Below, in pieces: positions 5,644 through 36,597 of a stretch of 64,000 nucleotides of DNA. The translations under genes were made by a program, and so were the position numbers. Each line of letters starts with the position of its first letter. Position 1 is the stretch's first letter. Origin of the DNA: Escherichia coli (GTDB lineage: Bacteria; Pseudomonadota; Gammaproteobacteria; Enterobacterales; Enterobacteriaceae); the NCBI RefSeq assembly GCF_003334335.1, contig NZ_QOWQ01000010.1; one strand, 5' to 3'. The notes under the pieces are model-generated. The model saw only the letters and a list, made by a program, of their open reading frames with translations, had not been told where the DNA came from and did no database searches.

Positions 5644-7980
5644 ATGAAGCAAATTCGTCTGCTGGCGCAGTATTATGTTGACCTGATGATGAAGTTAGGT
5701 CTGGTGCGCTTCTCAATGTTGCTGGCGCTGGCCCTCGTCGTTCTTGCCATTGTGGTACAAATGGCGGTAACCATGGTGCTGCATGGTCAGGTCGAAAGCA
5801 TTGATGTTATTCGTTCTATCTTCTTTGGTTTGCTGATTACGCCGTGGGCGGTCTACTTTCTATCGGTGGTCGTCGAGCAACTGGAGGAGTCACGACAACG
5901 TCTGTCACGGCTGGTGCAAAAACTGGAGGAGATGCGCGAGCGCGATTTGAGCCTCAACGTTCAGTTAAAAGATAATATTGCCCAGCTAAATCAGGAAATT
6001 GCCGTTCGTGAAAAAGCGGAAGCAGAACTGCAGGAAACCTTCGGCCAACTGAAAATTGAAATCAAAGAGCGCGAAGAGACACAAATTCAGCTCGAGCAGC
6101 AATCCTCATTCTTACGTTCCTTCCTTGATGCTTCACCCGACCTGGTTTTTTATCGTAACGAAGATAAAGAGTTTTCCGGCTGTAACCGCGCGATGGAGCT
6201 GCTGACCGGAAAAAGCGAAAAACAACTGGTTCACCTGAAACCTGCTGATGTTTACTCACCGGAAGCCGCCGCAAAAGTCATTGAAACCGATGAAAAAGTG
6301 TTCCGTCATAATGTGTCACTGACCTATGAACAGTGGCTGGATTACCCGGACGGGCGCAAAGCCTGCTTTGAAATCCGTAAAGTGCCGTACTACGACCGCG
6401 TGGGTAAACGTCACGGTTTGATGGGCTTTGGTCGCGACATTACCGAGCGTAAGCGGTATCAGGATGCGCTTGAACGGGCCAGCCGCGACAAAACGACGTT
6501 TATCTCCACCATCAGTCACGAATTGCGTACACCGCTGAACGGTATCGTCGGTCTGAGCCGCATTCTGCTGGATACCGAACTCACCGCCGAGCAGGAAAAA
6601 TATCTCAAGACCATCCATGTTTCGGCCGTCACGCTGGGGAATATCTTTAACGATATTATCGACATGGATAAGATGGAACGGCGCAAGGTCCAGCTTGATA
6701 ATCAACCGGTTGATTTCACCAGCTTCCTTGCCGATCTGGAAAATCTCTCCGCATTGCAGGCGCAACAAAAAGGATTGCGCTTTAACCTGGAGCCGACGCT
6801 GCCATTACCGCATCAGGTCATTACCGACGGGACGCGTTTACGGCAGATCCTGTGGAACCTCATCAGTAACGCCGTCAAATTCACCCAGCAAGGCCAGGTT
6901 ACCGTGCGCGTGCGCTACGATGAAGGCGATATGCTGCATTTTGAAGTGGAAGACTCTGGTATCGGCATTCCGCAGGATGAGCTAGATAAAATTTTCGCCA
7001 TGTATTACCAGGTGAAAGACAGTCATGGCGGTAAACCTGCCACCGGCACCGGTATTGGTCTGGCCGTTTCTCGTCGTCTGGCGAAAAATATGGGCGGCGA
7101 TATTACGGTTACCAGCGAACAGGGCAAAGGTTCAACCTTTACGTTGACGATCCACGCACCGTCGGTAGCAGAAGAGGTCGATGATGCGTTTGATGAAGAC
7201 GATATGCCTTTACCGGCGCTGAATGTGCTGCTGGTGGAAGACATTGAACTGAACGTGATTGTTGCGCGTTCTGTGCTGGAAAAATTAGGTAACAGCGTTG
7301 ATGTCGCCATGACCGGCAAGGCGGCGCTGGAGATGTTTAAACCGGGCGAATACGACCTGGTGTTGCTGGATATTCAGTTGCCAGATATGACCGGGCTGGA
7401 TATCTCTCGTGAACTGACGAAACGTTATCCGCGCGAGGATTTACCGCCGCTGGTGGCCTTAACCGCTAACGTGCTGAAAGACAAACAAGAGTACCTCAAT
7501 GCTGGAATGGATGATGTGCTGAGTAAGCCGCTTTCTGTTCCGGCGCTAACCGCGATGATCAAGAAATTCTGGGATACCCAGGATGATGAGGAGAGTACGG
7601 TGACGACAGAAGAGAACAGTAAATCAGAAGCATTGCTCGATATTCCCATGCTGGAACAGTATCTCGAACTTGTAGGACCGAAGCTGATCACCGACGGGTT
7701 AGCGGTGTTTGAGAAGATGATGCCGGGCTATGTCAGCGTGCTGGAGTCGAATCTGACGGCGCAGGATAAAAAAGGCATTGTTGAGGAAGGACATAAAATT
7801 AAAGGTGCGGCGGGGTCAGTGGGGTTACGCCATCTGCAACAGCTGGGTCAGCAAATTCAGTCTCCTGACCTTCCGGCCTGGGAAGATAACGTCGGTGAAT
7901 GGATTGAAGAGATGAAAGAAGAGTGGCGTCACGACGTAGAAGTGCTGAAAGCGTGGGTGGCAAAAGCCACTAAAAAATGA
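5644..7980 (+). CDS. arcB: Aerobic respiration control sensor histidine kinase ArcB
   Basis: 778 aa ORF; N-terminal transmembrane segment, HisKA motif ISHELRTPLN, receiver and HPt regions; matches ArcB as recalled. Confidence 0.97.
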   Translation: MKQIRLLAQYYVDLMMKLGLVRFSMLLALALVVLAIVVQMAVTMVLHGQVESIDVIRSIFFGLLITPWAVYFLSVVVEQLEESRQRLSRLVQKLEEMRERDLSLNVQLKDNIAQLNQEIAVREKAEAELQETFGQLKIEIKEREETQIQLEQQSSFLRSFLDASPDLVFYRNEDKEFSGCNRAMELLTGKSEKQLVHLKPADVYSPEAAAKVIETDEKVFRHNVSLTYEQWLDYPDGRKACFEIRKVPYYDRVGKRHGLMGFGRDITERKRYQDALERASRDKTTFISTISHELRTPLNGIVGLSRILLDTELTAEQEKYLKTIHVSAVTLGNIFNDIIDMDKMERRKVQLDNQPVDFTSFLADLENLSALQAQQKGLRFNLEPTLPLPHQVITDGTRLRQILWNLISNAVKFTQQGQVTVRVRYDEGDMLHFEVEDSGIGIPQDELDKIFAMYYQVKDSHGGKPATGTGIGLAVSRRLAKNMGGDITVTSEQGKGSTFTLTIHAPSVAEEVDDAFDEDDMPLPALNVLLVEDIELNVIVARSVLEKLGNSVDVAMTGKAALEMFKPGEYDLVLLDIQLPDMTGLDISRELTKRYPREDLPPLVALTANVLKDKQEYLNAGMDDVLSKPLSVPALTAMIKKFWDTQDDEESTVTTEENSKSEALLDIPMLEQYLELVGPKLITDGLAVFEKMMPGYVSVLESNLTAQDKKGIVEEGHKIKGAAGSVGLRHLQQLGQQIQSPDLPAWEDNVGEWIEEMKEEWRHDVEVLKAWVAKATKK

Positions 7981-8092
7981 CCCCGGCTAGACCGGGGTGC
8001 GCGAATACTGCGCCAACACCAGGGAAATCTTGGCTGCGCCGTAAATTATTATGATGAGTTACAAGGGCACAGCACTGTTTTTCAGGCCGCAC
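7972..8092 (-). ncRNA. arcZ: Hfq-dependent small RNA ArcZ (RyhA/SraH)
   Basis: Reverse complement reads GTGCGGCCTGAAAAACAGTGCTGTGCCC...CACCCCGGTCTAGCCGGGGTCATTTTTT, matching the ArcZ sequence as I recall it. Terminator hairpin CCCCGG/CCGGGG at 7981-7997; the U-run overlaps the arcB stop codon. Confidence 0.8.
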
Positions 8093-8209
8093 GCAGTTAA
8101 GATAGCAAAACTTAAATGATTTGTTACATGAATCAGTTAAATGTGTGATGCGTACCATTTTTATTAAAAAAATTAATGTGTTTCAGTCAATTGCGAAAGG
8201 ATGATCACA

Positions 8210-8863
8210 ATGAAGAAAATTGGCGTAATTCTGAGCGGATGCGGCGTCTATGACGGTTCTGAAATTCATGAAGCGGTGTTGACGTTGTTAGCTATTTCAC
8301 GCAGCGGTGCGCAGGCGGTCTGCTTTGCACCGGATAAGCAGCAGGTTGATGTTATCAACCATTTAACTGGCGAAGCGATGACGGAAACGCGCAATGTGCT
8401 GATTGAAGCGGCACGAATAACGCGCGGTGAAATCCGTCCTCTGGCCCAGGCCGATGCCGCTGAACTGGATGCGTTGATTGTGCCGGGGGGGTTTGGCGCG
8501 GCGAAGAATTTAAGCAATTTTGCCAGTCTTGGTAGCGAATGCACCGTTGACCGTGAATTAAAGGCGCTGGCACAAGCGATGCATCAGGCCGGAAAACCGC
8601 TTGGTTTTATGTGTATTGCCCCGGCGATGCTGCCGAAAATTTTCGATTTCCCGCTGCGTTTGACCATCGGTACTGATATCGATACCGCAGAAGTGCTGGA
8701 AGAGATGGGCGCGGAGCATGTGCCGTGTCCTGTCGATGATATCGTGGTTGATGAAGACAATAAGATTGTCACCACCCCAGCATATATGCTGGCGCAGAAC
8801 ATTGCAGAAGCGGCGAGCGGCATTGATAAGCTGGTTTCCCGCGTGCTGGTTCTGGCTGAATGA
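8210..8863 (+). CDS. elbB: DJ-1/PfpI-family protein ElbB (YhbL)
   Basis: ORF-track 8201..8863; start moved to [12 protein letters not shown] (217 aa). Confidence 0.9.
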
Positions 8864-29706: not shown

Positions 29707-29782
29707 AATCTCGCGCTAACAACCTGGAATCGAGCCGTCATACTACGGCGCAACGCCCTATAAAGTAAACGATGACCCTTCG

Positions 29783-29810
29783 GGAACTTCAGGGTAAAAT
29801 GACTATCAAA
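29783..29810 (+). promoter_or_regulatory. Candidate sigmaE-type promoter upstream of greA
   Basis: GGAACTT, 16-bp spacer, TCAAA fits the sigmaE -35/-10 pattern; greA is a reported sigmaE regulon member. Confidence 0.5.
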
Positions 29811-29825
29811 ATGTGAATTGTAGCT

Positions 29826-29859
29826 GACCTGGGACTTGTACCCGGGTCGGTATTTTTTT
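29826..29859 (+). terminator. graL: greA leader attenuator hairpin (3-prime end of the GraL leader RNA)
   Basis: GACCTGGG-ACTTGTA-CCCGGGTC followed by GGTATTTTTTT, about 95 nt upstream of the greA ATG. Confidence 0.6.
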
Positions 29860-36510: not shown

Positions 36511-36597
36511 GCCGAGGTGGTGGAATTGGTAGACACGCTACCTTGAGGTGGTAGTGCCCAATAGGGCTTACGGGTTCAAGTCCCGTCCTCGGTACCA
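36511..36597 (+). tRNA. leuU: tRNA-Leu (anticodon GAG)
   Basis: GCCGAGGTGGTGGAATTGGTAGACACGCTACCTTGAGGTGGTAG...GGTTCAAGTCCCGTCCTCGGTACCA; 87 nt with long variable arm and encoded CCA. Confidence 0.95.

Follow-up and report, generated by a model that had tools for sequence, protein, structure and literature searches.

The locus considered here, in a stretch of 64,000 nucleotides of Escherichia coli DNA (hereafter the window), raises the question of how closely the gene of the sensor kinase ArcB and the small RNA gene on the opposite strand are tied together at the point where they meet. Two further questions follow: whether the few base pairs that they share have a regulatory role, and where the arcB mRNA ends.

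The region 7972..8092 on the minus strand is arcZ (formerly sraH or ryhA), the gene of a trans-acting small RNA of E. coli. When the whole window was scanned with Rfam, the ArcZ family (RF00081) was matched on the minus strand at 8092..7985, over model positions 1-106 of 106, with 120.8 bits (E 4.1e-27) and well above the gathering score of 66. The reverse complement of 7972-8092 is identical in 121 of 121 bases to RefSeq arcZ b4450 (NC_000913.3 3350577..3350697, plus strand). Record coordinates were converted as window p = 3358669 - NC_000913.3 coordinate, which places the start of the 121-nt primary transcript at 8092 and its annotated 3' end at 7972. A comparison of 5 kb with MG1655 showed two differences in all, at 6984 and 9956, and neither of them falls within arcZ. 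Sequence, position, strand, the neighbors arcB and elbB, the terminator and the overlap with arcB are all the same as for ArcZ (SraH/RyhA, b4450), and no difference in the RNA was found. An earlier note on this DNA had named the RNA as ArcZ, had given its span as exactly the annotated gene limits, and had proposed alignment to annotated arcZ as the check, with a mismatch as the refutation; that alignment was run and has zero mismatches in 121, in agreement with the Rfam match and the RefSeq annotation. Its remark that this is described biology was also correct, as the overlap, the repression by phosphorylated ArcA (ArcA-P) and the mutual negative regulation have all been published. The arcZ/arcB arrangement is real, conserved, and has been in the literature since 2001-2010.

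The arcB coding sequence, which encodes the sensor histidine kinase ArcB of 778 amino acids (RefSeq b3210), occupies 5644..7980 on the plus strand and is convergent with arcZ. Its end at 7980 corresponds to that of MG1655 arcB at 3350689..3353025 (minus strand) in NC_000913.3, and both the list of open reading frames and the RefSeq annotation agree with the tail-to-tail order described before. The translation of the 5644-7980 frame ends in ...AKATKK*, and the plus strand at the junction reads GCC ACT AAA AAA TGA CCCCGGCTAGACCGGGG TGCGCG. The stop codon TGA lies at 7978..7980, and its complement UCA is the spacer that separates the stem of the ArcZ terminator from the U-run, while the U6 tract of ArcZ (7972..7977, minus strand) is the complement of the codons for Lys777-Lys778 (AAA AAA). 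The annotated overlap of arcZ with the arcB coding sequence is 9 nt (7972-7980), or 8 nt when the ArcZ end mapped by Term-seq is used. A 2024 review describes arcZ as lying downstream of arcB in reverse orientation, usually with a ten-base overlap (PMC11331407), and an arcZ -10 promoter mutant was chosen in an earlier study to spare "the overlapped arcB gene" (Bak et al., 2014, PMC3937726). On the other side of arcZ, elbB (8210..8863, plus strand; RefSeq b3209, also in the list of reading frames) is divergent from arcZ and runs in the same direction as arcB; in the RefSeq annotation arcB, elbB, and mtgA are all co-directional.

The scan of 7600-8500 for terminators found a single one on the minus strand, ACCCCGGTCTAGCCGGGGT at 7998..7980 followed by CATTTTTTAG. 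It has a stem of eight pairs with the loop CTA, and RNA folding gave the identical hairpin, ACCCCGGU-CUA-GCCGGGGU, so that the 3' end of ArcZ can be written as A-CCCCGGU-CUA-GCCGGGG-U-CA-UUUUUU. U7980, the complement of A7980 in the arcB stop codon, closes this stem by pairing with A7998; the stop codon itself sits between the stem and the U-run, and the stem-loop 7981-7997 falls in the presumed 3' UTR of arcB. Apart from the U-run and the UCA, nothing but the A7998-U7980 pair that closes the stem reaches into the arcB coding sequence, and the remainder of the hairpin is outside it. The earlier note had placed both the hairpin and the U-run on the final arcB codons and the stop codon, which is right for the U-run and the UCA spacer but not for the stem; the overlap of the terminator tail with the stop codon is borne out by the sequence and the terminator scan. 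In published Term-seq data a strong arcZ 3' end, antisense to arcB, is listed for three conditions (Adams et al., 2021, PMC7815308, supplementary file 1), and its position 3350696 (plus strand) corresponds to 7973 in the window, at the fifth U of the run. The hairpin at 7998-7980 with its U6 tail is thus the Rho-independent terminator with U tail (Hfq-binding 3' module) that is expected of the ArcZ family.

The same study also reports a region of Rho-dependent termination within arcB on the strand of ArcZ, at 3351461 or window 7208, downstream of which reads rose from 20 to 418 with bicyclomycin (Adams et al., PMC7815308, supplementary file 2). This points to ArcZ-sense transcription that enters arcB and that Rho normally cuts short; it may be read-through from ArcZ or may start at an internal antisense promoter.

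ArcZ is described as Hfq-dependent, and RNase E is reported to cut the 121-nt RNA to an active 3' form of approximately 56 nt (PMC11331407; PMC4152358). RNAs of approximately 121 and 56 nt from this strand have been seen on many occasions. Counted back from the 3' end with this published length, the processed portion would cover 7972..8027 on the minus strand. According to the literature, the conserved seed is part of this fragment, whose pairing targets include rpoS and flhDC. It contains a conserved core of 31 nt, TTCCCTGGTGTTGGCGCAGTATTCGCGCACC (7996-8026, minus strand), which is matched exactly in at least 120 species. The 5' part of full-length ArcZ forms a stem-loop, GCUGUGCC...GGCGCAGC (8033..8073, minus strand), in the alignment to the Rfam consensus structure, and the transcribed 5' half is variable, poorly conserved and rich in indels in an alignment of 25 species.

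That alignment, of the 190 nt upstream of the core in 25 Enterobacterales species, also contains the promoter region. A simple promoter scan of 7600-8500 called no sigma-70 consensus site, and the promoter was assigned by eye from the annotated start at 8092 and from conservation. The minus-strand sequence that precedes 8092 is TGTAACA-N17-TATCTT-AACTGC-G(+1), where TG occupies -15/-14, and the putative arcZ promoter (8099..8127, minus strand) would be of the extended -10 type, with the -35 hexamer GTAACA at 8127-8122, a 17-nt spacer and the extended -10 TGcTATCTT at 8107-8099. Among the 25 species TCACA (TGTGA at 8144-8148 on the plus strand) is invariant, whereas TGTAACA, containing the -35 (TGTTACA at 8121-8127 on the plus strand), and TTTGCTAT, the extended -10, are near-invariant. 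ArcA-P recognizes direct repeats of TGTTA at a spacing of 11 bp. On the plus strand, ArcA-box-like direct repeats overlap the promoter at 8111..8148 (CTTAA at 8111, TGTTA at 8122, and TGTGA at 8144) in an 11- or 22-bp phase, and CTTAAATGATTTGTTA (8111-8126) has one mismatch to GTTAAN6TGTTA, a pattern that has 64 matches with at most two mismatches in the 64-kb window, eight of them, including 8111-8126, with one. The layout of the half-sites at 8111, 8122, and 8144 fits ArcA-P, and we infer from the bases a putative ArcA site. ArcA-P has been described to bind the arcZ promoter and thereby to repress arcZ (PMC11331407).

An insertion in this promoter was observed in some laboratory strains. 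The top-ranked K-12 matches of a 901-nt query around the site carry IS1 between arcB and elbB, with an 8-bp target duplication, CAAAACTT, that corresponds to window 8106-8113 or -21 to -14 of the arcZ promoter. By alignment the element lies between the -35 and ArcA-like sites on one side and the -10 on the other. An 80-nt query across the IS1 junction had 100% matches in 53 genomes, nearly all of them identifiable K-12 derivatives (C600/EC600 and transconjugants, CV601, TG1, RV308, NEB Turbo, DTU-1, and GM4792), and a 92.5% match in the 5.2-Mb genome of the clinical strain HSP60. No description of an IS1 insertion in the arcZ promoter was found in the literature searched; the ER2796 genome paper gives arcZ as "missing."

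Within the species the locus is nearly constant. The 901-nt query matched 5417 of 5426 complete E. coli genomes, with 100% identity to K-12 strains, and a 171-nt stretch consisting of the arcB tail, arcZ and the promoter was present in the same number (5417 of 5426) and at least 99% identical in 5394. For the comparison between species, the exact 31-nt core (7996-8026) was searched and one genome per species was kept, which gave at least 120 loci, a sample that favors species with an unchanged core and leaves lineages with a diverged ArcZ unrepresented. The genera that carry the core include Escherichia, Salmonella, Citrobacter, Klebsiella, Enterobacter, Yersinia, and Rahnella, as well as Photorhabdus, Xenorhabdus, Proteus, Providencia, Morganella, Erwinia, Pantoea, Mixta, and others. 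At the large majority of the 120 further Enterobacterales loci among the matches listed, arcZ lies directly downstream of arcB in convergent orientation, and all 120 have TCA or TTA and then 5-9 consecutive T after the terminator stem. The hairpin occurs in 36 variants across the listed species, all of which fold (-8.6 to -16.9 kcal/mol), with compensatory changes in the stem (CCCCGG/CCGGGG, CCCCAAC/GUUGGGG, and CCCCAGU/ACUGGGG; GG:CC to AA:UU). When the end of arcB at each locus was taken as the end of the longest open reading frame on the opposite strand, 100 of 121 sequences (the 120 listed loci and the window) had their stop codon at the TCA/TTA triplet and an ArcB with KK as its last residues. 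The stop is within the U-run or at its end in approximately ten of the 121 (among them Morganella, Pluralibacter, and some Pantoea) and 15-21 nt past the stem in approximately ten more, mostly Pantoea and Mixta, in which arcZ and arcB therefore do not overlap. A few loci look disrupted or unusual, namely those of Serratia sp. M24T3, Kluyvera genomosp. 3, Chimaeribacter, and Ca. Pantoea persica. These counts put a number on the statement of the review that arcZ usually overlaps arcB and place the exceptions mainly in Pantoea, Mixta, Morganella, and Pluralibacter. Across most Enterobacterales, such sharing ties the C-terminal Lys-Lys of ArcB and its TGA or TAA stop to the tail of the ArcZ terminator.

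Several studies have connected the two genes functionally. ArcZ is stated to destabilize the arcB mRNA to which it is antisense (Bak et al., 2014, PMC3937726) and has been classed as a cis-encoded 3'-end antisense RNA with this effect (Mika and Hengge, 2014, PMC4152358), and a mutual negative regulation of ArcZ and arcB has been described, in which the reverse effect, an antisense action of the arcB mRNA, is "speculated" (PMC11331407). According to this literature, ArcB phosphorylates ArcA at low oxygen and ArcA-P represses arcZ, and ArcZ for its part reduces the level of arcB mRNA, so that the two inhibit each other as a switch. An arcB read-through RNA that is complementary to ArcZ may be what the cis-antisense effect physically depends on. 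Like other cis-encoded 3'-end antisense RNAs, ArcZ is transcribed from the opposite strand, is convergent with its partner, shares DNA with the partner's 3' end, and is reported to be in mutual negative regulation with it; it differs from them in that only 8-9 coding nucleotides are shared and that its main documented activity is in trans. The ArcZ seed, unlike the cis-antisense overlap, lies outside the arcB coding sequence, and the extent of complementarity depends on the arcB 3' UTR. Nothing speaks against the identity as arcZ, and we consider it very probable (about 95%) that the locus is explained jointly by the identity of arcZ, its overlap with arcB, the mutually inhibitory switch and a presumed read-through of arcB.

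The overlap might also reflect genome compaction with no regulatory role, in which case ArcZ would act only in trans and its effect on arcB would be indirect, by way of other ArcZ targets, or would come from pairing of the seed elsewhere in the arcB mRNA. The weak points of a cis-antisense action speak for this explanation: the overlap guaranteed in the coding sequence is a mere 8-9 nt, and Pantoea and Mixta, which make up most of the approximately ten listed sequences without overlap, retain ArcZ nevertheless, as does Pectobacterium carotovorum, for which the review that calls the antisense action speculated also notes arcZ and arcB without overlap (PMC11331407). Against compaction speak a stop codon at the identical position in 100 of 121 listed sequences from several families and the reports that ArcZ, as an antisense RNA to the 3' end in cis, destabilizes arcB mRNA (PMC3937726; PMC4152358). 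Nor does the ArcZ seed form an outstanding duplex at the arcB translation-initiation region: in a crude duplex test the energy was -24.8 kcal/mol, and 74% of 608 background windows were equal or better. Pairing of the seed in trans at the translation-initiation region was rejected as the cause of arcB repression, the duplex energy being at background. Compaction is on the whole an unlikely explanation.

The reach of a cis-antisense action depends on the end of the arcB mRNA. The terminator scan found no terminator-like site on the plus strand in 7600-8500. Past the hairpin the plus strand continues with TGCGCGAAT, without a U-run, and the plus-strand fold at the site is unremarkable (z = -1.4). 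Because no intrinsic terminator follows arcB on its own strand, arcB transcripts probably enter the arcZ region, where they would be complementary to much or all of ArcZ. The published Term-seq lists no 3' end on the arcB strand in three conditions and names arcB only in three arcZ rows (PMC7815308), for which low expression of arcB may be a simple cause. The earlier note had spoken of complementarity between the two 3' ends; this holds for the 9 bp that are shared, but it presupposed a 3' end of the arcB mRNA, and the published Term-seq lists none on the arcB strand here. The literature on SEnd-seq that was searched had nothing specific to arcB or arcZ.

In its furthest form, read-through would mean that all arcB transcripts traverse arcZ and possibly elbB-mtgA. 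The resulting 121-nt anti-ArcZ sequence would serve as a stoichiometric sponge or as a substrate of RNase III, and the conserved stop codon in the terminator tail would interlock the two transcription units by head-on collision of polymerases and duplex formation instead of reflecting compaction. We regard this extension as improbable.

Alternatively, the hairpin at 7980-7998 could be a terminator shared by both genes, so that the arcB mRNA would end there and the two RNAs would overlap by approximately 20-26 nt. It begins 1 nt past the stop codon of arcB, its sequence is sufficiently palindromic for either strand to fold into it, and head-on collisions of RNA polymerases at convergent genes are reported in a preprint to promote termination at sites of this kind (bioRxiv 10.1101/2022.10.23.513370). 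Bidirectional intrinsic terminators of convergent genes likewise consist of one GC-rich hairpin between the genes with an A-tract on one side, but they need a symmetry of A-tract, stem and U-tract, and at this site the stem is followed by CAUUUUUU on the minus strand and by UGCGCGAAU on the plus strand. The U-run is present in the ArcZ direction only, and the site therefore fails this symmetry. The continuation of the plus strand as TGCGCGAAT, the negative scan of 7600-8500 and the Term-seq without an arcB-strand 3' end in three conditions all argue against a shared terminator as well, and in a literature search on arcZ the expression "bidirectional terminator" came up in an unrelated sense only. 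A terminator for both genes at this position is thus quite improbable. Finally, that a 62-aa minus-strand reading frame (7970-8158, ATG start), which is present in the mechanical list of reading frames, encodes a small protein, with the RNA as its mRNA, was rejected as having next to no probability, because its ATG at 8158 is 66 nt upstream of the annotated arcZ transcription start at 8092 and the reading frame is not preserved between species, the 5' half of ArcZ having cross-species indels that would break any frame and the conserved portion being the non-coding seed and terminator.

For the joint explanation by arcZ, its overlap with arcB and the mutual switch, the end of the arcB mRNA decides whether the cis-antisense interaction spans approximately 9 nt or the whole small RNA. 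In enterobacteria, ArcZ connects the general stress response (RpoS) as well as motility and virulence with the sensing of oxygen and redox state by ArcB/ArcA. The interlocking of arcZ with arcB is a textbook-level example of a small RNA wired to a two-component system, and this picture is left unchanged by the present analysis.

Over the 5-kb stretch compared, the window differs from the reference E. coli K-12 strain MG1655 (NC_000913.3) at two positions only, 6984 inside arcB (A versus G) and 9956 in the yrbL region (T versus C); it is thus not MG1655 itself but very closely related to it. Further Rfam matches within the window, all above the gathering score, are the sRNA SraG (47271-47442, minus strand) and, on the plus strand, the greA leader (29737-29858), the rimP leader (40545-40645), the ribosomal S15 leader (46927-47041), naRNA4 (45344-45414) and tRNAs at 36511-36594 and 40380-40453. 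Among the records examined, only the curated MG1655 record annotates arcZ (7972-8092, minus strand) as an ncRNA; in the PGAP-annotated RefSeq E. coli genomes listed (genome matches H73-H87), arcB is the sole feature under the arcZ match. The paper on the ER2796 genome called arcZ "missing", for which its omission by PGAP may be the reason. A 62-aa ATG open reading frame (7970-8158, minus strand) overlaps arcZ on the same strand. Its ATG precedes the start of ArcZ transcription by 66 nt and its frame is not conserved, which makes a real gene here very improbable.

A non-standard arrangement of arcB and arcZ was seen in loci from Pantoea and Mixta (L023, L024, L041, L042, L063, L074, L085), Morganella (L015, L062) and a Pluralibacter-like group (L032, L055, L109, L121). 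In Pantoea and Mixta the C-terminus of ArcB is longer or different and the arcB stop codon lies 15-21 nt past the ArcZ stem, so that the two genes do not overlap, while in Morganella and Pluralibacter the arcB stop codon is TAA and falls within the ArcZ U-run. The ArcZ stem followed by TCA or TTA and a T-run is kept in all these departing loci.

Adams et al. (2021; PMC7815308, supplementary file 2), who compared DirectRNA-seq in the presence and absence of bicyclomycin, list a region of Rho-dependent termination inside arcB but on the opposite, ArcZ-sense strand, at NC_000913.3 position 3351461, which corresponds to window position ~7208; reads downstream of it rose from 20 to 418 with bicyclomycin. 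Transcription in the ArcZ sense therefore enters arcB and is ended there by Rho, ~765 nt past the ArcZ terminator, and its source may be either read-through from ArcZ or a separate antisense promoter.

Across 25 Enterobacterales genera, the arcZ promoter (8099-8148) is far more conserved than the 5' half of the ArcZ transcript, with TCACA invariant and both TGTAACA and TTTGCTAT near-invariant. An IS1 element separates the putative -35 (8127-8122) and ArcA-like sites (8111-8148) from the extended -10 (8107-8099) of this promoter in 53 complete genomes from laboratory lineages of K-12 (C600/EC600, CV601, TG1, RV308, NEB Turbo, DTU-1, GM4792 and derivatives). The insertion site corresponds to window 8106-8113, with the target duplication CAAAACTT, and in strain C600 the element occupies positions 1015-1790 of locus L002; the window itself is without the insertion, and a search of the literature found no description of it. 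The 5.2-Mb genome of the clinical E. coli strain HSP60 (NZ_CM137001.1; hits H66 and H87) matches the junction between IS1 and the arcZ promoter at 92.5%, and its arcZ match is interrupted where the junction falls, at window position ~8108. This coincidence of an imperfect junction match with the break in the arcZ match suggests a separate insertion of an IS1 variant into the same AT-rich spot. In the widely used strains that bear IS1, the expression of ArcZ or its control by ArcA may be changed.
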